In this document: positions 2,399 to 19,004 of the stretch, in pieces
How positions within the stretch are numbered: the stretch's first letter is position 1
Layout: every line of letters starts with the position of its first letter
Assembly (NCBI GenBank): GCA_000438075.1
Contig: FR903548.1
Coordinates: forward strand, 48,570-112,569
Reading direction: 5' to 3'
From: Clostridium sp. CAG:609
GTDB lineage: Bacteria > Bacillota_I > Bacilli_A > RF39 > UBA660
DNA: 64,000 nucleotides
Program-made: the position numbers and the translations under genes
Notes under the pieces: generated by a model
What the model was told of the DNA's origin: nothing
The model's input: only the letters and a program-made list of their open reading frames with translations
Databases searched by the model: none

Positions 2399-3166
2399 AT
2401 GGGAGGAATAAAAAATACATTTAGTAAGTTTTTAACTAATAAAACTACCGTAACAATATTAGGTGTTATTCTTGGTTTAGGTGTTTTAGTAGGTTTTTAT
2501 ACATATCGTGTAAAAAATCAAGTTAATCCTGTTAAAGTGCCTGTTGCAAAAAGAGAAATCTTAGCAACTGAAGAAATAACTAAAGATGATATTGAATATA
2601 TACGTGTAAGTTCTAAGTTTTTAAAGAAAGCTGATGTATATAAAAGTACAACTAATTTAATTGGTAAATATGTAGCAACTGGAACATCTATTCCTAAAGG
2701 TGGTATGTTTTATCAAACATTGGTAGTTGAAAAAAAGGAATTGCCTAATGCTATTTTTGATGAAATACCAAAAGGATATACAATTTATCAATTACAAGTA
2801 GATAATACAAGTACTTATGCTAATTCAATATTCCCAGGAGATGTCATAGACTTATGGCTTAAAACAACTGAAGATCAATTATTAGTATTCGGAGAATTTA
2901 TTTCCAATATTAAGGTTCTAGCAGTAAGAGATTCATCTGGACAAAATGTTTTTGATGTAACTTCTGGTAGAAAGCCTGCATGGTTACTCTTTGCAGTTGA
3001 AACAGATATGTATCGTTATTTAAAACTAGCTGAAAATATCTCAGGAATGAGTGTTATTCCAGTACCTAAGAATAACTTAGTTAATCCAGATATTGGTTCA
3101 ACACAATATTCAAGTGATGAAATTAAGGCCTTAATAGATGCACAATCTGAAAGGAAGGGAGCATAA
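2399..3166 (+). CDS. cpaB: Flp pilus assembly protein CpaB/RcpC-like (copy 1)
   Basis: SD AAGGAGG. An N-terminal TM is followed by a SAF-like segment (VPVAKREILATEEITKDDIEY...IGKYVATGTSIPKGGMF) and a beta-rich C-domain. It is a clear paralog of the next ORF. Confidence 0.6.
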   Translation: MGGIKNTFSKFLTNKTTVTILGVILGLGVLVGFYTYRVKNQVNPVKVPVAKREILATEEITKDDIEYIRVSSKFLKKADVYKSTTNLIGKYVATGTSIPKGGMFYQTLVVEKKELPNAIFDEIPKGYTIYQLQVDNTSTYANSIFPGDVIDLWLKTTEDQLLVFGEFISNIKVLAVRDSSGQNVFDVTSGRKPAWLLFAVETDMYRYLKLAENISGMSVIPVPKNNLVNPDIGSTQYSSDEIKALIDAQSERKGA

Positions 3167-3168
3167 CT

Positions 3169-3969
3169 ATGTCAAATATCATAAATAAGATTAGAAACCT
3201 TTTATTAAATCGTAACACAGTTACGATTTTAGGTGTACTTGCTGGGGTTATTGCTTTATGGATTGCATATAGCATTACATTAGATAGAGCAGTTAAACCC
3301 CAAAAAGTACCTGTTGCCAATAAAGTATTAACAGCAGGTACCATAATTACTAAAGATGATATTGAATATGTCGAAGTAAATGGTGAAGCATTAAGAAAAG
3401 CAAGTGTTATAACATCATCTAGTCAATTAATAGGTTATTATGTTAAAAATGATACATCAATAGCTATCGGAGAAATGTTTTATAAAGCTCAAGTAATAAG
3501 TAAAGATAAATTAATTGAAAGAGATTTGGAAAGAGTTCCTGAAAACTTTAAAATGTATTGGTTAAAAGCAAATAATAAAACAACATATGCAAATTCAATA
3601 TATCCTGGTGATAAAATAGATTTATGGTTACTTACTAAAGTAGATGGTAAATGGATTTATGAAGAATTTATTAAAAATATTGAAGTATTAAATGTTAAAG
3701 ATGACAAAGGTCAAAATGTTTTTGATGTAACTAGTGGCAGAGAACCTGCCTGGTTATCATTTGCAGTTAATACTGAAATGTACACATATTTAAAAAAGGT
3801 TGAATATTTAGCAAATATGACAATATATCCAGTACCAGTAAATAAAAATAATCAAGATGAAGAAGCTAAAACAGAAATTAGCAATCAAGAACTTGTAAAA
3901 ATAATTGATTCTTTAGCAAGAAAGAACCCTGAAGAACAAAGTGTAGAAGAAAATAATAATAATGAATAA
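3169..3969 (+). CDS. cpaB: Flp pilus assembly protein CpaB/RcpC-like (copy 2)
   Basis: Same architecture as copy 1 (VPVANKVLTAGTIITKDDIEY...IGYYVKNDTSIAIGEMF; shared GQNVFDVTSGR.PAWL.FAV block). Acidic C-terminal tail. Confidence 0.6.
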   Translation: MSNIINKIRNLLLNRNTVTILGVLAGVIALWIAYSITLDRAVKPQKVPVANKVLTAGTIITKDDIEYVEVNGEALRKASVITSSSQLIGYYVKNDTSIAIGEMFYKAQVISKDKLIERDLERVPENFKMYWLKANNKTTYANSIYPGDKIDLWLLTKVDGKWIYEEFIKNIEVLNVKDDKGQNVFDVTSGREPAWLSFAVNTEMYTYLKKVEYLANMTIYPVPVNKNNQDEEAKTEISNQELVKIIDSLARKNPEEQSVEENNNNE

Positions 3970-3983
3970 AAGAGGTGATTTTT

Positions 3984-5084
3984 GTGAATGATGCTATATT
4001 TTCACAAATAGATTTTGGACCTTTAAAAGAGTTTTTAGAGGAAGATAATATTACAGACGTTTCATATTCAAACGGAGGTCAAGTTTGGCTAAAAACTCTT
4101 GATAAAGGTATTTATAGGGTTGAAAGACCTGAGATTAATAATGCTTTAATGGAAAAGCTTGCTTTTCAATGTTCCAATGTAATGGGTAAAACATTTAATA
4201 TGGCCCATCCATTCCTAGACGCAGAATCAGCAGAATTACGTTTAAATTTCGTACATGAATCAATTGCAACAAATGGAATATGTTGTGTTATAAGAAAGAC
4301 GCCAGCCAAAATCCGTCTAAATAAAGAAAAGCTTATCAATGAAAAATATGTTACCGAAGATTTACATGACTTTTTAATGACTTGTGTTGAAGGTCACTGT
4401 AACATCATGGTAAGTGGTGAAACTGGTTCAGGTAAGACAGAACTAGTTAAGTACTTAGCTAGCCACACAAAAGAAAATGAAAAGATAATAACTATCGAAG
4501 ATACACTTGAACTTCACTTAGATAAGATATTTCCACATAGAGATATAGTTGCTATGAAAACAAATAACATTGCATCATATTCTGATGTATTAGTAACTTG
4601 TATGAGACAGAATCCAAAATGGATATTACTATCCGAAGTTCGTAGTGCTGAAGCAGTTACAGCAGTTCGAAACTCAATATCATCTGGTCACAACATTATA
4701 TCAACAATTCACTCAGATAGAGCATTAAATATTCCAATGCGTTTATATAGCTTACTTGAAAATAGCCAAGATATTGAACAATTCTTAAAATCAATTCATA
4801 GATATATTCAAATAGGTATTCACGTAAAAGGTTACATGAGTAAAGAACTAGGTAGATTTCAACGTGAAATAATCGAAGTAGTTGAGTTTTATGTTGATGA
4901 AAATAATGAAGCTAAATCAAATATCATATTTAAGAAAAGTCTAGATGGAAAATTTAGTTTTAATAATCCATCAAAATATTTAATAGATTATCTTGGTGTT
5001 CAAGGCGTAACCATTAAAGATGATTATTTTGTTAAGTCAAAAGGAAATAATACCAACGAAGAGGTTGTCATTGAAAGCTTATAG
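3984..5084 (+). CDS. tadA: Type II/IV secretion-family ATPase (TadA/CpaF/VirB11-like)
   Basis: Walker A GETGSGKTE, Asp-box IITIEDTLEL, Walker B-like WILLSEVR, His-box GHNIISTIHS. The start is set at GTG 3984 because the track start GTG 3975 lies inside the SD AGAGGTG. Confidence 0.8.
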   Translation: MNDAIFSQIDFGPLKEFLEEDNITDVSYSNGGQVWLKTLDKGIYRVERPEINNALMEKLAFQCSNVMGKTFNMAHPFLDAESAELRLNFVHESIATNGICCVIRKTPAKIRLNKEKLINEKYVTEDLHDFLMTCVEGHCNIMVSGETGSGKTELVKYLASHTKENEKIITIEDTLELHLDKIFPHRDIVAMKTNNIASYSDVLVTCMRQNPKWILLSEVRSAEAVTAVRNSISSGHNIISTIHSDRALNIPMRLYSLLENSQDIEQFLKSIHRYIQIGIHVKGYMSKELGRFQREIIEVVEFYVDENNEAKSNIIFKKSLDGKFSFNNPSKYLIDYLGVQGVTIKDDYFVKSKGNNTNEEVVIESL

Positions 5085-5096
5085 AAAGGAGTAAAA

Positions 5097-6002
5097 ATGA
5101 AATATTTACCAGAGTTAATAATCCTACTTATTATAGCTATAGTTGTCTTAGTAGCAAGGCGTAATCCCGGTGAAAATGTTTATAAGTTTTTTGTAACAAA
5201 TGCCACTCGTGCTTATGATAAGTATGCTCCATATTCATTTAAAATGGTAAGAGAAAAAGCCATAGAACTTGGTCAAGAGTATACCCCACGTCAATACATA
5301 AGTCAAATAGTTATTCTTGGAGGTCTTGCTGGTTTAGTTGGTTACTTTTACTTTTATAGTATCATTATAGCAGTAATATATGCAATAGTTGCTATATCAA
5401 CAATACCATATCTTGCTTATTTAAGACTTCAAAGAGTATACAGTGAATATATATTTGAACAAATTCAAACATATACAACCAATGTTATAATGGAATTTAA
5501 TACAACTCAAAGTTTTGTCAAATCTCTAGAAGGTGTAAGAGACTCCGGAATCCTTGAAGATCCAGTTTTAAGTGATGTTAAAAAAATGATTGACATGTCA
5601 TATCAAAATGGAACCATTGATGAATCAATTCAATACTTTAATAATTTATATCCATTTTATATGGTAAAAAATATGCATCAATTATTCTTACAAATAACTA
5701 AAGAAGGTGCCAGAGATTCTGGACAAGCTCTTGAAAATATGTCACTAGATATCGACGCCTTAGTTGAAGGAGTATATCGTGACCAAATGGATCGTAATAA
5801 CTTCCATGCCAAATTTTTAAGATTCGGTTTAATTTTGTATTTCCTAGTTGTTGTTTTAAGATTCATGCTTGGTGAAGAAAACTACATTAAACTGCTTGAT
5901 ACATGGTATGTTCAACTTATACTTCATGCCATTGTTATTATAAACGCTTATTTCCTAATGACTGGAGAAAAGTATTATAACGAAGATGTGGGGGTAGAAT
6001 AA
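5097..6002 (+). CDS. tadB: Polytopic membrane protein, TadB / T2SS-F-like platform protein
   Basis: SD AAAGGAG. Topology is an N-terminal TM, a TM pair, a helical cytoplasmic domain and C-terminal TMs. It lies immediately downstream of the ATPase. The call rests on topology and context only. Confidence 0.55.
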   Translation: MKYLPELIILLIIAIVVLVARRNPGENVYKFFVTNATRAYDKYAPYSFKMVREKAIELGQEYTPRQYISQIVILGGLAGLVGYFYFYSIIIAVIYAIVAISTIPYLAYLRLQRVYSEYIFEQIQTYTTNVIMEFNTTQSFVKSLEGVRDSGILEDPVLSDVKKMIDMSYQNGTIDESIQYFNNLYPFYMVKNMHQLFLQITKEGARDSGQALENMSLDIDALVEGVYRDQMDRNNFHAKFLRFGLILYFLVVVLRFMLGEENYIKLLDTWYVQLILHAIVIINAYFLMTGEKYYNEDVGVE

Positions 6003-6790
6003 TGCAAATAGAAATAATTATAATAGCTATAATTGTATTTGGGATAATGACAATAACTGGTCAAATAAGTATTAATCAACTCATCAGTGATAATCAAATG
6101 CTTTTTATGAAATTAAAAGAAAAAGACTGGGATTTTCTAGTTCGTGCTAAATATGGTAATAATGTTAATCCCGATATACTTTTTAATAAAAGAATAAAGA
6201 ATGGTCTTATAACAATGGCACTTGGATTTGCCATTATGATTAAAAGCTTGAATAGTGTTAAAATCTTAATTATTGTTGTGGCAGGTTACTATGTATTTAA
6301 AACAGGTTATAATGATATAAAAAAATATTATCAAAGACATATGGCAGATATTGATTCAATGTTACCACACTATCTAAAGAACCTAGAAATACTTATTCAA
6401 CACTATACTGTACCAGTTGCAATAGGTAAATCAATGGCTGAAGCACCGGATATATTCCGCGAAGGACTTCAAGAAATGATTGATTCAATTAATGCCGGAG
6501 ATGATTCAATTGATCCATACATGAATTTTGCTAGAAAATATCCAGTCAGAGATTCAATGCGTATGATGAGACTTTTATATCGTTTAAGTCTAGGTCGTCA
6601 AGAAAGAAAACAAGAACAAATCTTAACATTCTCAAAATCTATATCTAACTTACAACAAAAAGCTAGAGAAACAAGATATAAAAATCGTCTAGAAAAGATG
6701 GAAAATAAAACAATGAGTATGTTAATAACAACTGGTTTTGGTCTAATGATTTTATTAGTACTGGCGGTTGTGCAACTAATGGATATATAA
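6002..6790 (+). CDS. tadC: Polytopic membrane protein, TadC / T2SS-F-like platform protein
   Basis: The start overlaps the previous stop (TAATG). Topology class is the same as the previous ORF. The call rests on context. Confidence 0.55.
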   Translation: MQIEIIIIAIIVFGIMTITGQISINQLISDNQMLFMKLKEKDWDFLVRAKYGNNVNPDILFNKRIKNGLITMALGFAIMIKSLNSVKILIIVVAGYYVFKTGYNDIKKYYQRHMADIDSMLPHYLKNLEILIQHYTVPVAIGKSMAEAPDIFREGLQEMIDSINAGDDSIDPYMNFARKYPVRDSMRMMRLLYRLSLGRQERKQEQILTFSKSISNLQQKARETRYKNRLEKMENKTMSMLITTGFGLMILLVLAVVQLMDI

Positions 6791-6815
6791 AAAAACAAAA
6801 AGATATTAAAAATAA

Positions 6816-6844
6816 TTGATATTTAACTGATTTTAAGTTATAAT
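6816..6844 (+). promoter_or_regulatory. Sigma-A-type promoter in front of the pilin-like genes
   Basis: TTGATA (6816-6821), 17-nt spacer, TATAAT (6839-6844), about 30 nt upstream of the SD AAGGAGG of the 6877 ORF. Confidence 0.5.
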
Positions 6845-6876
6845 AATTATATAAAATAAAGGAGGATTAAAAAAAG

Positions 6877-7134
6877 ATGAAAGAAGCTACAGGCGAATTA
6901 AATATGACTGTTGTTACAGTAGTTGCTATTGCAGCTGTTGGAGCATTCTTCTATTTCTTCATTTGGCCAGGTATTCAAGCAGGACTTGCAAGAAATACAT
7001 GTAAAAATATCTGCCCAGAAGCATCTGTTAAAAGCGTCAACGTTAAAGAAGGTACATGTACTTGTGGAAACGATGAAGTAATTAACTTTAAAGACGTTCA
7101 AGACGGAGGAAGTACTCAAGGCGAAGGTAAATAA
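6877..7134 (+). CDS. Pilin-like small protein, candidate major subunit (Flp-like class, non-canonical leader)
   Basis: 85 aa. The leader MKEATGELNMTV is followed by a hydrophobic helix (VVTVVAIAAVGAFFYFFIW) and a Cys-containing tail. Strong SD and its own promoter. Located in the Tad-like locus. Confidence 0.5.
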   Translation: MKEATGELNMTVVTVVAIAAVGAFFYFFIWPGIQAGLARNTCKNICPEASVKSVNVKEGTCTCGNDEVINFKDVQDGGSTQGEGK

Positions 7135-7161
7135 TTAAGTCATTAATAAAGAGGTGAAAGA

Positions 7162-7464
7162 ATGAAAGAGGCTACAGGAGAATTGAATATAACAGTTATT
7201 GTTGCAATATCAATTGGTATCTTGGCGGCCTTTTTTTTCGGTTTTTTATGGCCACTATTAAATAATAACTTTCACAGAACTGCTCAATGCAGAAATGCTA
7301 TTTGTAATTGTAGTGAAGAAGCAAGACAAAGAGCAAGCACAAGCACCGGATCAGATTATATGTGTGAATGTAAAATGAGACAAAAACAAACGGGCGAAGA
7401 AGACGATACAAATAATTATTTTGGAACTGGTGATAATATTTTTTATTGCCCATTTAAAGGATAG
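7162..7464 (+). CDS. Pilin-like small protein, paralog 2
   Basis: 100 aa. The leader is nearly identical (MKEATGELNITV) and is followed by a hydrophobic helix. The C-terminal part is unrelated and has 7 Cys. SD AGAGGTGA. Confidence 0.5.
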   Translation: MKEATGELNITVIVAISIGILAAFFFGFLWPLLNNNFHRTAQCRNAICNCSEEARQRASTSTGSDYMCECKMRQKQTGEEDDTNNYFGTGDNIFYCPFKG

Positions 7465-7474
7465 GGGATGAATT

Positions 7475-7987
7475 ATGAAAGAATCCATAAGTATGACAGC
7501 TATATTTCAAATAGTTATACTATTTATTTTACTTTTTACAGCAATTATGGCATTAACAATAAATAATTCAAATGCCTTTGGTGTAAAAGATGAAATAGTA
7601 AATATACTTGAATTAAATGGTGGTAAGTATTTAGATGATTCTAATGAAAATTTAAATGAAGAAATAGTAGATTTGCTTGCCAACACTTCATATAGAACAA
7701 CTGGAAAATGTCCAGAAGATGAAGGATATATTGGTTTTGAAAGAAATGGAAGTAGAATAACATCAAATCAAGATGCAACAGTATGTATAAGAGAAGTTAG
7801 AGCCACTGAAGGAGTAGATAATTACTTAACAGGTGGGGATGTTTTAGGTAACACCGTTGCAACTGATGACTTTGTCTTAGGTAGTTACTATGAAGTAATA
7901 GTGTTCTTCCAAATGGATTTACCTATAATAAGACAAATATATAACTTCCAATCAAAAGCACAAACTAAGGTTATATACCAAGATTAA
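7475..7987 (+). CDS. TadE-like N-terminally anchored minor pilin/pseudopilin candidate
   Basis: An N-terminal hydrophobic helix (IFQIVILFILLFTAIMAL) is followed by a soluble domain. It shares KCPE..GY and YYEV.VF....LPII blocks with the next ORF. Confidence 0.4.
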   Translation: MKESISMTAIFQIVILFILLFTAIMALTINNSNAFGVKDEIVNILELNGGKYLDDSNENLNEEIVDLLANTSYRTTGKCPEDEGYIGFERNGSRITSNQDATVCIREVRATEGVDNYLTGGDVLGNTVATDDFVLGSYYEVIVFFQMDLPIIRQIYNFQSKAQTKVIYQD

Positions 7988-7996
7988 GGAGTAAAA

Positions 7997-8449
7997 ATGA
8001 AAACAGTAAGTGAATCTACATGGTCATTTCAATTAATAATATTTTTTATTCTAATTTTTGCCTGTTTCTTAACTTTAATACTTAGTTATTCAAAAGCATA
8101 TACAATTAAAAATAGAATGTTAACTATTATAGAAAAGTATGAAGGAGTAACTGATGAATCTGCTAAAATAATTAATAGTTTTGCTAAACAAAAAAGTTAC
8201 AATACAACAAGTAAATGTCCAGAAGGATGGTATGGTGCAACAGACTTAGAAGGTGACATTGAATTGTCTGATGGAAGTGCAAAATATTATTATTGTTTTA
8301 ATGAGCTTCGTGCTAAAACGGGAAAGATTTATTATGAAGTTCAAGTATTTTATCGTTTTAATTTACCCATCATCGGTGAAGTTGGAATGTATCGAATAAA
8401 AGGACAAACTAAGACTTTCGTGGGATCTTTAGATAGAAAATACAACTAG
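7997..8449 (+). CDS. TadE-like N-terminally anchored minor pilin/pseudopilin candidate (paralog)
   Basis: An N-terminal helix (FQLIIFFILIFACFLTLIL) is present. It shares KCPEGWYG and YYEVQVFYRFNLPII blocks with the previous ORF. Confidence 0.4.
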   Translation: MKTVSESTWSFQLIIFFILIFACFLTLILSYSKAYTIKNRMLTIIEKYEGVTDESAKIINSFAKQKSYNTTSKCPEGWYGATDLEGDIELSDGSAKYYYCFNELRAKTGKIYYEVQVFYRFNLPIIGEVGMYRIKGQTKTFVGSLDRKYN

Positions 8450-8463
8450 AAAGGAAATAAATT

Positions 8464-9453
8464 ATGAATGTAATAATTTCAAATAAATATCAATCATTAT
8501 TAGCAAGCCTAAATATTGATGTTATAAAAAGTATAAACGGAGAATTTTCAGTTGATGAATTAGTTCAACAATTTCAAAGTTTTTACTACAATAAAATGAT
8601 TATTGATATAACTGCTATAAAAGGCTATGAAGATATAAATGTTATGCAAAGTTTATCAGTAAATTTTGATATGTCTAAAGTAATAATTTTATTAGATGAT
8701 TCAGAAAAAGTAAACTCACCAATGTATATATCTCAACTTATTTCAATGGGTATTTATAATTTTACAAATGATGTAAACACAGTAAAATATTTAATTGATA
8801 ATCCAAATCAATATAAAGATGTTGCAAATTACCACAACATAAGTGGATTTAAGAAACCAGCCTTAAATGAAAGAGCAGTAGATAATACCAAAGGTAAAAT
8901 TGGTCAAAAGGTAATAGGTTTTAAAAATGTAACAGAACATGCCGGAGCAACAACTTTAGTATATTTACTTAAATTACATTTAGAAAAAAGTTATAAAGTT
9001 AAAGCTGTTGAAGTAGATAAAAATGATTTTGTGTACTTTAATGATTCATCGTTAGAAAGCATATCAAGTATTAATTTTAATGATTTTGTATCCCAAAATG
9101 CAAATTATGATGTTATTTTAGTAGATATTAATGATGCAGATATTGAAGATTACTGTCAAGATATGGTATACTTAATTGAACCGGGATTAATTAAATTAAA
9201 TAAATTAATACGGAAAGATAATAGTATTTTTGAAAAGTTAAGAAATGATAAGATAGTTCTTAACAGAAGTGTACTAAATGAAAAAGATGTAATTGACTTC
9301 GAAAAAGAAAGTGGCAGTAAAGTATTTTATAACTTACCATGTCTAGATGATAAACTTGATGATCAAAGAGTTTTAAATGAATTTTTAACAGCTTTAGGAT
9401 TCAGTAGAGTGGAAGGAAGTCATTCATCAGGTATATTTAGTATATTTAAATAG
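8464..9453 (+). CDS. TadZ/CpaE-like protein: receiver-like N-domain plus ParA/MinD-fold domain with degenerate P-loop
   Basis: The C-domain has a MinD/ParA-like layout (KVIGFKNVTEHAGATTLVYLL...YDVILVDIN), but no GKS/T lysine is visible in the Walker A position. Located in the Tad-like locus. Confidence 0.5.
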   Translation: MNVIISNKYQSLLASLNIDVIKSINGEFSVDELVQQFQSFYYNKMIIDITAIKGYEDINVMQSLSVNFDMSKVIILLDDSEKVNSPMYISQLISMGIYNFTNDVNTVKYLIDNPNQYKDVANYHNISGFKKPALNERAVDNTKGKIGQKVIGFKNVTEHAGATTLVYLLKLHLEKSYKVKAVEVDKNDFVYFNDSSLESISSINFNDFVSQNANYDVILVDINDADIEDYCQDMVYLIEPGLIKLNKLIRKDNSIFEKLRNDKIVLNRSVLNEKDVIDFEKESGSKVFYNLPCLDDKLDDQRVLNEFLTALGFSRVEGSHSSGIFSIFK

Positions 9454-9464
9454 GGAGGTTTAAA

Positions 9465-9815
9465 ATGGAATTTTGTTACAAAAGTGCAACAATATGGCAA
9501 ATAGTTGGTAAAATAATATTTATAATTAAAATAATAGTACCAATATTAATTATTGTTCTAGCATCAATTGACTTAGGTAAAGCAACAATATCAAGTGATG
9601 ATAAAGCTATATCAAAAGCAGGAAAAACACTACTACGAAGGATAGTAACTGGTATCATCATATTCTTTATTCCATTACTAATTAAAGTATTATTTAATAT
9701 GGTAGCGGGTTTTAATGAAGATATAAAAAATGATTATGAAAATTGTGTTGTTTGTTTAACAGATCCTTATAATGAATGTGATACATCATATAAAGGTGAA
9801 ATATTTACAAAGTAA
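9465..9815 (+). CDS. Small 2-TM membrane protein with Cys-rich C-terminal tail (VirB2/TrbC-like topology; function unknown)
   Basis: SD GGGAGG. The layout is TM1, a conserved loop DLGKATISSDDKAISKAGKTLLRR, TM2, then a tail NCVVCLTDPYNEC. It is a paralog of the next ORF. Confidence 0.5.
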   Translation: MEFCYKSATIWQIVGKIIFIIKIIVPILIIVLASIDLGKATISSDDKAISKAGKTLLRRIVTGIIIFFIPLLIKVLFNMVAGFNEDIKNDYENCVVCLTDPYNECDTSYKGEIFTK

Positions 9816-9828
9816 ATATCATAAAAGA

Positions 9829-9857
9829 TTGACTTTACAGCTATTTTAGGGTAAAAT
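9829..9857 (+). promoter_or_regulatory. Sigma-A-type promoter for the second 2-TM gene
   Basis: TTGACT (9829-9834), 17-nt spacer, TAAAAT (9852-9857). Confidence 0.5.
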
Positions 9858-9886
9858 AAATGTATACAAAGGGAGGAGTGTTATTT

Positions 9887-10201
9887 ATGACTTTTTGTAC
9901 TGATGCACGTGATATTTTCTATACTATAGGAATGTTCTTACTAGTATTTAAAATTGTGATTCCTATTTTATTAATTATATTTGGTATGGTTGATTTAGGA
10001 AAAGCAGTTATTGCCAGTGATGATAAAGCTGTATCAAAAGCAGCAAAATCATTATTAAATCGTGTAATCGCTGGTATATGTATCTTCTTCGTTCCACTAA
10101 TCGTAAGTATTGTATTTAAGATGGTTGGTTCATTCGGAGAAGTTAAAGATCAATTTGATGTTTGTGCTAACTGTATTGCTAGTCCAACAACAAAATGTTA
10201 G
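9887..10201 (+). CDS. Small 2-TM membrane protein with Cys-rich tail (paralog 2)
   Basis: The start is moved to ATG 9887 behind SD GGGAGGAG; MTFCTDARD aligns with MEFCYKSAT of the paralog. Conserved loop DLGKAVIASDDKAVSKAAKSLLNR. Tail VCANCIASPTTKC. Confidence 0.5.
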   Translation: MTFCTDARDIFYTIGMFLLVFKIVIPILLIIFGMVDLGKAVIASDDKAVSKAAKSLLNRVIAGICIFFVPLIVSIVFKMVGSFGEVKDQFDVCANCIASPTTKC

Positions 10202-10394
10202 TTAATTAAAGCTATTAAGGTAGTCAAAAAAGACTATCTTTTATTTTGGTACAAAATAAAAGATCCATTAGATATTTCTAATGATCTTTAGCAGTACAAT
10301 GACATCTCATATAACATAATATACATTCTGGTATATATATTATGCATGAAAGGAGCAAGATGTCATCAATTAAATATTACCATAATTAATAAAA

Positions 10395-10434
10395 AAATAC
10401 AATAAAAAAGATAGATTAGTTACAAATCTATCTT
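10395..10434 (-). terminator. Rho-independent terminator of the 10452-11900 gene
   Basis: A perfect 10-bp stem AAGATAGATT/AATCTATCTT (10408-10434) has a 7-nt loop and is followed on the minus strand by a T-rich run. Confidence 0.6.
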
Positions 10435-10451
10435 GAATTTAAGTTTAATAA

Positions 10452-11900
10452 TTAAGCATTTCTATCTTCATAGATGCCTGTATATTCCCAACCAGCTAAT
10501 GAAGTTTCTTTGCTCCATGTATATTTAGGAGTTCTATGTATCCATTTAACTTCTACTTTTTTATCTGATTTAGTGTATCCAGGATACTTACTAGCATTTG
10601 ATTCAGTATCTCTTACACATGTATTCTTATCAGTATAAGTTACATTGAATTTTAATGGAACAAAGTAAACAGAACCTTTTTCACTTGAATATGGAACAAC
10701 ACCATTACCATTATAGAAATTAATAGTAACTCTAGTTCTATAAGTACCACCAGAAAGGTATGCATCTTGAACTGTGAACCCAAAATTATTTCTAGTTAAT
10801 GCTGAAGCTCTAAATACTGTAGCATTTTTAGGAACAATATCCCACTTAAAGTCATTACCAGTTTGATATACATTATATTTATTATCAAGGTATGCTTGGT
10901 AATCAGTTAAATTATTACTGAAGTATGAAATACTGTTTCTTACGATAGATAAATCATTAACGTTATCAGGGATATTTAACATTTGTAATTCGTAATTGTA
11001 TGAAGTACTCTTTGATGAAGAACCAACCCAACTAGTTGAGTAAATAGTTTTAGTATCTACTTTACAATAGTTATAAGTAACGGTTTCAGTAGATTTGTTT
11101 TCAGCATCTTTTTCATAAGAATATCCATCTGACCATTCACTCCATTTTCTATATTTATAATATCTTACTTTAGATGGAGTAGGAGTTGGATCTGGTGTAG
11201 GTGTAGGTTTAGTATCACTTCCACAATCAAAACAACAACTTCCACAACTTACATTAACGGTTACAGTAGTTTTAACAGTTACAGTAGATGTACTCTTTGT
11301 ACTTGAACTAGCACTATTTGAAGAACTAGAACTAGAACTTGAACCAGTATTTCCTTTAGTAACAGTCTTGTTATTATCTGTTTTACCATTATTGTTTGTT
11401 GTAGTATCAATTACAACATCTGAGTTAGTAGCATTGTTTTTACAAGTATCACTACTTGAGCATATATCAGCACTTTCAATTGTAGTAACTATAAAGTCTG
11501 ATTGCTTTCCACAAGTTAAACTAACCTTTAAAGCATAGTTACCATCAGCAGTTTTAGTAGCTTGAACATAACTTGAATTAGTATCACAAACTTTACCATC
11601 GTTAGTAAAATCAATTAATAACTTTTGGTTAATCATTTGAGCCAAAGTAAGTTTTTCAGTACCTCCAACTTTTTCAGGTAACTTAGATTTAGTGAAATAT
11701 TCAAATGCAGCAGTTTTCATAGTACTGATATTTGTAATATAATCACTATTTGAGCTAGCTAATGTATTGCTACTTGAATTTTTACCAGTAACTTTAGTAA
11801 AAATTAATCCAGCAAGGAATACAATAACAGCTAGAATCACTAACTTAATAAGAAGTGATCCCCAATTTAAACTTAAATTTTTATTTCCTTCTTCGTACAT
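10452..11900 (-). CDS. Membrane-anchored surface protein: pilin-like globular domain, Ser/Thr-rich and PT-repeat linkers, beta-rich C-domain
   Basis: N-terminal TM (LLIKLVILAVIVFLAGLIF). The segment LTLAQMINQKLLIDFTNDGKVCDTNSSYVQATKTADGNYALKVSLTCGK resembles the globular head common in Firmicute type IV pilin-like proteins. Poly-Ser run, CGSCCFDCG, PTPTPDPTPTPS. It has its own consensus promoter and terminator. Confidence 0.55.
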   Translation of the reverse strand: MYEEGNKNLSLNWGSLLIKLVILAVIVFLAGLIFTKVTGKNSSSNTLASSNSDYITNISTMKTAAFEYFTKSKLPEKVGGTEKLTLAQMINQKLLIDFTNDGKVCDTNSSYVQATKTADGNYALKVSLTCGKQSDFIVTTIESADICSSSDTCKNNATNSDVVIDTTTNNNGKTDNNKTVTKGNTGSSSSSSSSNSASSSTKSTSTVTVKTTVTVNVSCGSCCFDCGSDTKPTPTPDPTPTPSKVRYYKYRKWSEWSDGYSYEKDAENKSTETVTYNYCKVDTKTIYSTSWVGSSSKSTSYNYELQMLNIPDNVNDLSIVRNSISYFSNNLTDYQAYLDNKYNVYQTGNDFKWDIVPKNATVFRASALTRNNFGFTVQDAYLSGGTYRTRVTINFYNGNGVVPYSSEKGSVYFVPLKFNVTYTDKNTCVRDTESNASKYPGYTKSDKKVEVKWIHRTPKYTWSKETSLAGWEYTGIYEDRNA

Positions 11901-18378: not shown

Positions 18379-18408
18379 TTGACTTTTAATATATACTTAG
18401 TCTATATT
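18379..18408 (+). promoter_or_regulatory. Candidate promoter of mazEF
   Basis: TTGACT (18379-18384), 18-nt spacer, TATATT (18403-18408), just upstream of SD GGTGGAGGG. Confidence 0.4.
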
Positions 18409-18426
18409 ATAGGTGGAGGGATATAT

Positions 18427-18669
18427 ATGGGATACAAAGTACAAAAATGGGGTAATTCCAATGGAATAAGAATACCAAAAGTTTTTTTAGAAGCTTTAAA
18501 TCTTAAATCAGGAGATTCAGTAAGTATGGTAAGAGAGGAGGACAAAATAATAATCAAAAAGATTGCAAGACCAAGAGTTTCATTAAAACAAAGAATCAAA
18601 GATTATGAAGGTCCTAATGAGTGTGAAGACTTTACTTGGGACGAAGCAAAGGGGAAAGAGTTATGGTAA
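18427..18669 (+). CDS. mazE: MazE/AbrB-type (SpoVT-AbrB fold) antitoxin
   Basis: MGYKVQKWGNSNGIRIPK... is a typical swapped-hairpin N-terminus. It is 80 aa, and its stop overlaps the toxin start (ATGGTAA). Confidence 0.8.
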   Translation: MGYKVQKWGNSNGIRIPKVFLEALNLKSGDSVSMVREEDKIIIKKIARPRVSLKQRIKDYEGPNECEDFTWDEAKGKELW

Positions 18670-19004
18670 ATTACATACCGCAAGAAAGAGATATAGTATA
18701 CATTAATTTTAGTCCAATTAAAGGACATGAACAAAAGGGAGTAAGACCAGCATTGGTACTTAGTAACAGGTTATTTAATCAGTTCACAAATATGGTAGTG
18801 TTATGTCCCATAAGCACAAATAACAAGACATTTCCAACCCATTATCAATTCAAAAGTTTGAAAAAAATAAATGGTTCAGCATTATGTGAACATCTAAGAA
18901 GTGTTGATTTTAAAGAAAGACACATCGATTTTATAGAAAAATGTAGTAAAGAAGATTACGACGAAGTCATTGAACTAGTTAAATGTTTCTTTGATGGTAA
19001 TTAA
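18663..19004 (+). CDS. mazF: MazF/PemK-family endoribonuclease toxin
   Basis: The sequence RDIVYINFSPIKGHEQKGVRPALVLSN...VLCPISTN...PTH matches the conserved PemK/MazF core. The start ATG 18663 overlaps the mazE stop. Confidence 0.85.
   Translation: MVNYIPQERDIVYINFSPIKGHEQKGVRPALVLSNRLFNQFTNMVVLCPISTNNKTFPTHYQFKSLKKINGSALCEHLRSVDFKERHIDFIEKCSKEDYDEVIELVKCFFDGN

Follow-up and report, generated by a model that had tools for sequence, protein, structure and literature searches.

Two small proteins sharing an MKEATGELN N-terminus in uncultured gut Bacilli: probable pilins of a divergent filament of the Tad-like type

The DNA analyzed here is a 64,000-nucleotide stretch of Clostridium sp. CAG:609 (contig FR903548.1, positions 48,570 to 112,569), referred to below as the window, with a G+C content of 27% and 93.6% identity across 17 kb to a Bacilli metagenome-assembled genome (MAG) from the Hadza gut. 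Near its start lies an operon of 13 genes on one strand, whose gene order is kept in relatives, and within it are two adjacent small genes whose products begin with the same nine residues, MKEATGELN. We refer to these as pilin-1 (6877-7134, +; 85 amino acids [aa]), the candidate major subunit, and pilin-2 (7162-7464, +; 100 aa), its paralog. In pilin-1, the nine codons occupy positions 6877-6903 (+); residues 1 to 6 form a hexapeptide shared with other operon proteins, and residues 7 to 9 (ELN) are specific to the small pilins. The 86-nucleotide (nt) gap 5' of pilin-1 holds a promoter-like site, TTGATA-17-TATAAT (6816-6844, +), which is sigma-70-like with 11 of 12 matches and is the best one within positions 6500 to 10500. 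A ribosome-binding site, AGGAGG (6860-6865, +), lies between it and the gene. The shared N-terminus is genuine, strongly conserved, and unannotated, and the two proteins most likely serve as pilins in a divergent Tad-like filament, with a leader that is noncanonical and fixed.

As described in the first-pass annotation of this DNA, both open reading frames start with MKEATGELN followed by a hydrophobic stretch, and the strings TCTCG and CNCSEE...CECK are both found. The four Cys residues it counted in pilin-1 are at positions 42, 46, 61, and 63 (CxxxC ... CxC), but pilin-2 has six (43, 48, 50, 68, 70, and 96) rather than seven. It had also placed the end of the similarity at about 12 codons. 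This is true of the DNA, where 26 of the first 30 bases are identical and the match fades over about 30 to 45 nt, reaching background level by about nt 45, but protein similarity continues over 70 residues. The C-terminal bodies, which had been called unrelated, belong to divergent paralogs (BLASTP, 37% identity over 70 residues, E=9e-15), and the alignment spans the transmembrane (TM) helix, an FF pair, W30-P31, and the Cys frame. Synonymous codons differ at positions 4, 5, 6, 8, and 11, indicating that the constraint acts on the peptide and not on the DNA; gene conversion, or an RNA or DNA element behind the shared start, was ruled out on the same grounds. The sharing of MKEATGELN is far beyond chance.

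When the leader was aligned with homologs, a check proposed at the outset, the MKEATGELN segment proved to be conserved across the family, being kept in the homologs of both pilin-1 (n=1803, E<=0.01) and pilin-2 (n=66). A profile of the two pilins, run against 1.84 billion representatives, gave 650 clusters at 50% identity. Among the matches listed, all but one begin at residue 1 of both the profile and the protein; the sole exception is an internal match in a 268-aa repeat protein, and apart from it no listed homolog has an N-terminal extension. The N-terminal variation in these homologs is summarized by M-[KR]-[EDQ]-[AS]-x-[GS]-[ED]-L-N. A scan with one genome per species placed the pilin loci in at least 362 species, every one a MAG, with labels that were mostly uncultured Bacilli, "Tenericutes," or "Clostridium sp. 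CAG:628/CAG:1000." A third homolog search returned only relatives at least 85% identical and without Pfam labels, and pilin-1 had no match in plasmids by tblastn.

Averaged over pairs of pilin-1 family members, identity is 98% over residues 1 to 9, 76% over residues 10 to 46, and 30% from residue 47 to the end. Both the sequence and the length of the C-terminal part are hypervariable, and it is rich in D, E, N, G, and T; an example of a tryptic peptide from the head is EGTCTCGNDEVINFK. Judged from these alignments, the combination of a conserved segment (residues 1 to 46) and a hypervariable head is a pilin-like mode of evolution. In pilin-2, the extreme C-terminus is F-Y-C-P-F-K-G in most homologs listed despite the variable remainder of the head, and distant members keep the Cys and the final Gly (FNCVFKG, FLCTYGG, and YCPWGG), which suggests a possible contact or modification site.

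The hexapeptide also stands at the start of two larger proteins encoded directly 3' of pilin-2. These are a 170-aa bitopic protein (7475-7987, +) with the N-terminus MKESIS (family consensus, MKEAIGGTW) and its 150-aa paralog (7997-8449, +), which begins with MKTVSES in the window and with M[KR]EVSGSTW in many relatives. Across loci, M-[KR]-E-[AS]-x-[GS] heads all four operon proteins, the two small pilins and the 170/150-aa pair, with the larger ones following M-[KR]-E-[AS/V]-x-[G/S]. Residues were counted in 125 distinct small pilins and 116 larger proteins from the fetched loci. Position 6 is Gly in 123 small pilins and Ser in 2; in the larger proteins it is Gly in 77, Ser in 25, Ala in 5, and Glu in 9, that is, Gly, Ser, or Ala in 107 of 116. 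The larger proteins also have Lys (66) or Arg (49) at position 2 and Glu at position 3 (86). Glu7 and Leu8 are each present in 123 of the 125 small pilins, and Asn9 is likewise kept, whereas the larger proteins have Gly, Ser, or Thr followed by Thr-Trp at positions 7 to 9. The profiles of the small pilins and of the 150/170-aa proteins align in register from residue 1 (hhalign, E=1.4e-4), and a scan of all six frames of the window placed the signature plus an ensuing hydrophobic run in just four genes, all of this operon, at 1972, 6877, 7162, and 7475.

Finding the hexapeptide on four operon proteins strengthens the earlier suggestion that they have a processing or recognition step in common. 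We consider it likely that the hexapeptide is a signal shared by the pilin set, and a common N-terminal tag on one-helix proteins of a single operon is a hallmark of such a set. Since the 150- to 170-aa proteins carry it, they are candidate minor pilins. None of 68 larger proteins matched TadE (PF07811), Tad (PF13400), or DUF4320 (PF14208) at E<=0.01, and hhalign gave weak similarity to two DUF4320-like proteins (E=0.002 and 0.015). The restriction of the acidic residue to the members that would polymerize may parallel the role of Glu5 in classical systems.

An AlphaFold2 model of pilin-1 (pLDDT 78), built with 74 family members, has a coil at residues 1 to 9, a single helix at residues 10 to 45 (pLDDT of about 90), a sheet of three short strands within residues 51 to 70, and a disordered acidic tail. 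The model is thus laid out like the type IV pilin lollipop, in which a long N-terminal helix packs against a C-terminal sheet, but Foldseek against PDB returned no significant match. Cys residues 46, 61, and 63 are invariant in the family, and C42 is kept in at least 90% of members. As predicted, C42 lies in the helix and C46 just beyond its end, and C61 and C63 are on strand 2 (60 to 63). In the model, a CxxxC at the end of the helix and a CxC on a strand argue for two disulfides stapling the tiny head to the helix end and, thus, for an extracellular head. The CxxxC/CxC spacing is that of the cysteine-stabilized alpha-beta (CS-alpha-beta) motif. As in the CS-alpha-beta fold of defensins and scorpion toxins, the helix-end CxxxC and the strand CxC of pilin-1 each present their Cys pair on one side; however, those peptides are free and 30 to 50 residues long, whereas the pilin helix is the C-terminal end of a membrane or filament helix. 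Searched against PDB sequences, the pilin profile gave only insignificant TM matches. The top one, covering residues 8 to 57, was the membrane anchor at the N-terminus of ATP synthase subunit b (INLTLIG...F..FVWPP; E=0.2), a similarity that is probably convergence of TM features.

The genes 5' of the pilins encode a Tad-type set (ATPase, platform, and CpaB/RcpC) in which every component is very divergent. The first operon gene, of which the window holds the 3' part (1-1959, +), encodes a giant Cys-rich surface protein (1093 aa in relatives). It is followed by a DUF5411 bitopic protein (1972-2382, +; DUF5411 E=3.6e-58), whose N-terminus in relatives is MK[EN][SA][YF]W[GA], and by two CpaB/RcpC-like SAF-domain proteins (2399-3166 and 3169-3969, +; SAF at 23.6 bits, above the cut-off, and RcpC E=2.6e-4). 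The secretion ATPase (3975-5084, +) is TadA/VirB11-like. It matches T2SSE with E=5e-29, and its best NCBIfam models, VirB11 and TadA-family, both score under their cut-offs. Its identity to "VirB11," the product of gene 37 of plasmid pLS20, is 34% (E=5e-46; 33 to 34% to plasmid relatives), and the canonical CpaF of a relative of the window is more distant (25%, E=2e-29).

Two platform proteins are encoded next. Platform protein 2 (6002-6790, +) is TadC-like by position and topology and has no family match. Platform protein 1 (5097-6002, +) is a divergent T2SSF/TadB-like protein with no direct Pfam or PDB sequence match. Its AlphaFold2 model (pLDDT 79.5) had one geometrically good PDB match by Foldseek, the cytoplasmic domain of the T2SS platform EpsF (2vmb_B; probability 0.96, TM score 0.70, and root mean square deviation of 3.0 A over 114 columns, but E=1.8). 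By hhalign, its profile matched a platform protein encoded on a Priestia koreensis plasmid (probability 94%, E=1.2e-7), annotated as a T2SS F family protein and matching Pfam T2SSF (E=3.4e-5, 24.2 bits); hhalign against the single T2SSF protein of one relative (L080) was not significant. Given the fold, the hhalign match, and the T2SSF assignment of the Priestia protein, we accept the motor as one of the type IV filament type. The Priestia locus (L086; 198-kb Bacillaceae plasmid NZ_CP061869.1, 160210-173163) is syntenic with the window operon. Its genes encode an SLH protein, an Ig-like protein of 993 aa, DUF5411 and SAF proteins, a degenerate ParA-like protein, an ATPase of the CpaF/VirB11 type, a T2SSF-like platform followed by another platform, and DUF4320, and the 1.5 kb beyond them showed no gene for a small pilin.

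The 3' end of the operon encodes a 329-aa cytoplasmic protein (8464-9453, +), always found 3' of the pilin module, and two paralogous 2-TM hairpin proteins (9465-9815 and 9860-10201, +), which match T4SS_pilin (VirB2-type) under the cut-off (E=0.012 and 0.0016). The counterpart of the hairpins in pLS20, gene 45 (78 aa), matches T4SS_pilin above the Pfam cut-off (28.8 bits).

In one relative, L080, whose contig is shared with L087, the pilin module occurs alongside a genuine Flp/Tad locus. The module (L080:10001-12552) comprises two MKEATGELN pilins, 177- and 157-aa proteins, and a 333-aa protein, and it lies about 3 kb upstream of the canonical Flp/TadE/CpaE/CpaF/TadB/TadC locus (L080:15336-20177). 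No divergent motor genes are present within 10 kb upstream of this module, and motor genes are likewise missing upstream of the pilins in three more of the loci examined (L026, L027, and L035), for a total of four. The canonical locus serves as a positive control for Pfam in this lineage. Its Flp, MIRVIVMGKRG/QALVEY (a slash between residues marks a known or putative cleavage site), matches Flp_Fap (E=2.2e-6) and also has Cys in its tail, and TadE (E=3.4e-12), a P-loop CpaE, CpaF (T2SSE E=5.8e-59), and TadB and TadC (both T2SSF) are all recognized. Since Pfam detects these components, its silence on the pilins and platform of the window reflects real divergence. The contrast that the first-pass annotation drew with the G/xxxxEY of Flp pilins is correct, as the Flp of L080 has G/QALVEY and is found by Pfam and the small pilins are not; no homolog listed has Glu-Tyr at +5/+6. 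The Flp search that had been proposed gave the same picture, with Flp_Fap (PF04964) unmatched by the window pilins (E<=1) and by 53 family members (E<=0.1).

Among known systems, the Flp pilins of Tad (type IVc) systems, such as Aggregatibacter Flp1 and Caulobacter PilA, resemble the window pilins in being very small, with one long helix, often encoded in tandem, and accompanied by a TadA-type ATPase, two platforms, a CpaB/RcpC-like protein, and larger pilin-like partners. Besides lacking G/xxxxEY and a Flp_Fap match, the window pilins differ from Flp in their fixed six-residue leader, their Glu at +1 instead of +5, their Cys-stapled beta head, and an ATPase that groups with the pLS20 "VirB11" and not with CpaF. 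The leaders of type IVa and Com pilins, cut by the A24 peptidases PilD or ComC, are similar in having 5 to 7 residues ending in Gly directly before a hydrophobic helix and in being common to the major and minor pilins of a system. However, those leaders are basic and variable, whereas that of the window is net neutral to acidic and near-invariant (MKEATG); moreover, the +1 residue is Glu instead of Phe or Met, Glu5 is missing, and N_methyl and Class_IIIsignal are unmatched.

Genes 36 to 42 and 45 of the pLS20 family of Bacillus plasmids include the closest plasmid relatives of the ATPase and share an order with the window operon, namely, a DUF5411-like protein, the ATPase, two membrane proteins, a DUF4320-like protein, tiny one-TM proteins, and a VirB2-like protein. 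At 47 aa, the small proteins of pLS20 have neither the MKEAxG signature nor a Cys-rich head. The pLS20 module is part of a conjugative type IV secretion system (T4SS) operon, whereas the window operon is chromosomal, with no VirB4, VirD4, or VirB6 seen among its genes. One of the small proteins, p41, looked like a pilin relative by eye (aromatic-Pro-Gly at positions 30 to 32) but was dropped, as the hhalign comparison was not significant. In the conjugation operon of pLS20, genes 36 to 42 are listed without a known function (PMC8557374). An operon with a CpaF-type ATPase, a PilC/GspF-like platform, DUF5411, and a large adhesin-like protein has been predicted in Roseburia, Ruminococcus, and Eubacterium (Miller et al. 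2022, PMC9523054); these are Clostridia, a different lineage, and the available text of that article describes no pilins or leader. The pilus cluster of TANB77 (Nat Commun 2024, PMC11680825) is a fold-recognized, unannotated, divergent Tad-like cluster of uncultured gut Firmicutes that, like the window operon, encodes bitopic pilin-like proteins with their own promoters. Its proteins are 143 to 621 aa long and in another order, it is stated to be exclusive to TANB77, and the part of the article covered reports no MKEATGELN. The window pilins and their tag are not described in the portions retrieved of these three articles, and our literature search found no mention of MKEATGELN and none of DUF4320.

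The earlier reading of the small proteins as pilins is supported by the T2SSE ATPase, the CpaB/SAF proteins, the T2SSF-linked platform, and the predicted layout of a helix with a small sheet, and we regard this assignment as likely. The full reading, to which we give about the same weight for as against, is that they form, as major and second pilins, a divergent Tad-like filament and carry a fixed prepilin-type leader that is cut after Gly6. In such a filament, made by a very divergent Tad-like machine in uncultured, small-genome gut Bacilli, pilin-1 would be the major subunit, expressed from its own strong promoter, and pilin-2 the second subunit. Each would be a miniature type IV pilin, with a polar nine-residue N-terminus, one long helix that is hydrophobic first and then amphipathic, and a tiny, fast-evolving head stapled to the helix end by Cys. 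M-[KR]-E-[AS]-x-[GS] would act as a class-specific, fixed-length prepilin-type signal, presumably removed at Gly6/Glu7, on the cytoplasmic side of the membrane, by an A24-type peptidase whose gene lies at another place in the genome. Mature polymerizing pilins would then begin with Glu-Leu-Asn, and Glu at +1 could neutralize the buried N-terminus as Glu5 does classically, while the larger proteins, which have no Glu7, might prime or cap the filament.

Removal of the hexapeptide at Gly6/Glu7 by an A24-type prepilin peptidase is the more doubtful part of this proposal, and as read from the sequence it is plausible, falling slightly short of an even balance. The small residue at position 6 fits a -1 site. 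Type IVa and Com leaders, too, are typically six residues long, and the occurrence of the hexapeptide across a pilin set also favors cleavage. The conserved acid falls at the would-be +1 (Glu7, 123 of 125), and +5 is Thr11 or Ala11. Several observations weigh against pilins with a cleaved leader. At E<=1, no pilin family of Pfam or NCBIfam was matched by the two window pilins, and Flp_Fap, TadE, Class_IIIsignal, and N_methyl matched none of 53 small pilins and none of 68 larger proteins; Foldseek of the pilin-1 model against PDB found no pilin, the best E=1.0 being not significant. The small pilins have no Glu at +5 (G6/E-L-N-M-T-V). The near-invariance of K2, E3, and A4 and the fixed length are unlike discarded leaders, the window 150-aa protein has Glu at position 6, and the pilin N-tail is net negative with a positive C-flank, contrary to the positive-inside rule. 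No A24-like gene was present within +-10 kb in 69 loci, no operon protein has a GxGD motif, and a search for a hidden peptidase returned, as recurrent multi-TM proteins, only the two platforms, the hairpins, and a neighboring Lgt. The canonical Tad locus of L080/L087 is also without a linked A24 gene, which indicates that an unlinked peptidase is normal in this lineage and that its absence from the locus says little. The only protease-like membrane protein seen near the loci was an Rce1-like CPBP intramembrane protease, encoded on the opposite strand a few kilobases upstream in 9 of 69 loci (for example, L030:1077-1757 [-] and L087:1-266); it is too rare to be taken as the processing enzyme.

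The conservation of K2, E3, and A4, which extends over the 650 clusters and four paralogous families, also favors a different account, less probable than the full reading but still a serious contender. Here, the proteins still serve the same machine as pilins, but the hexapeptide is retained as a sequence-specific cytoplasmic tag read by the platform or ATPase, or is cut by a non-A24 enzyme, and the filament core would accommodate a retained tag through salt bridges of K2, E3, and E7. The tag is always six residues long in the homologs listed (the 268-aa repeat protein aside), no locus examined has a peptidase gene, and position 6 is Glu in the window 150-aa protein and in 9 of 116 relatives, all of which fit retention. 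On the other hand, position 6 is otherwise Gly, Ser, or Ala, just what a -1 site needs; a six-residue segment with Gly in last place resembles type IVa leaders; and it is established that the core of a type IV filament does not readily bury charges at the alpha1 tip.

A filament might also be the wrong frame altogether. The kinship of the ATPase with pLS20 gene 37, the same gene order in a module that sits within a conjugation operon, the VirB2-like hairpins closing the window operon, and a charge distribution that favors an N-out orientation would all suit small components anchored in the membrane and belonging to a pLS20-like envelope machine of conjugative origin, possibly oriented N-out/C-in and with a Cys4 tail that binds metal. 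We consider this improbable, as the C-terminal part is hypervariable, length-variable, and rich in D, E, N, G, and T like exposed surfaces, CxxxC/CxC is a CS-alpha-beta disulfide pattern and not a usual zinc site, the T4SS proteins named above were not seen in the operon, and p41 has no significant similarity to the pilins. Lastly, a conserved leader before a hypervariable Cys-rich C-terminal part, the CS-alpha-beta Cys spacing, and a possible A-G-L-A/R site in the window protein are features that precursors of secreted defensin- or bacteriocin-like peptides would have, with the N-terminal 38 to 45 residues as a Sec signal or leader and the variable part as the mature peptide. This is very improbable: the would-be -1 residue is Met or Thr in many members (GLMKNTC and GLTMNTC), an AxA site is lacking in pilin-2, the N-region carries a net negative charge, the model predicts one continuous helix from the membrane segment into CxxxC, the same N-terminus is found on the 150- to 170-aa proteins, and the genes lie in an ATPase-and-platform operon without a C39/ABC exporter.

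Returning to the pilin assignment, family members are plentiful in gut metagenomes of humans and animals and went undetected by Pfam, NCBIfam, and PDB sequence searches. If the proteins are true pilins, uncultured gut Bacilli have a common surface structure that has so far gone unnoticed, with exposed tips that evolve fast, and the Gly-1/Glu+5 rule of type IV pilins would not be universal. Tentatively, they could constitute an undescribed class of type IV filament subunits, confined to small-genome gut Bacilli, in which MKEAxG replaces the variable basic leader and is retained or removed by a nonclassical enzyme, an N-terminal Glu replaces Glu5, and the module is detachable from its motor and can adjoin other machines. 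Whether cleaved or not, a six-residue tag would make a simple test system, and the link to pLS20 suggests a function for its conjugation gene block 36 to 42. Pilin-like proteins of another uncultured gut clade are reported to stimulate host immunity (PMC11680825).

Two further observations concern the surroundings of the operon. Beside it, in convergent orientation, lies a gene for a 482-aa protein (10452-11900, -) with an N-terminal anchor, a Ser/Thr-rich linker, and the Cys cluster CGSCCFDCG; a convergent protein at this place is conserved in relatives (481 to 482 aa in L001 to L004). Farther along, the interval from uvrA to lgt/gltX carries an inserted toxin gene that varies among relatives (L001:18025-18516 compared with about 18379-19004 in the window), the slot being occupied by a ToxN-type toxin in CAG:460-like loci and by a MazF-like open reading frame (18636-19004) in the window.

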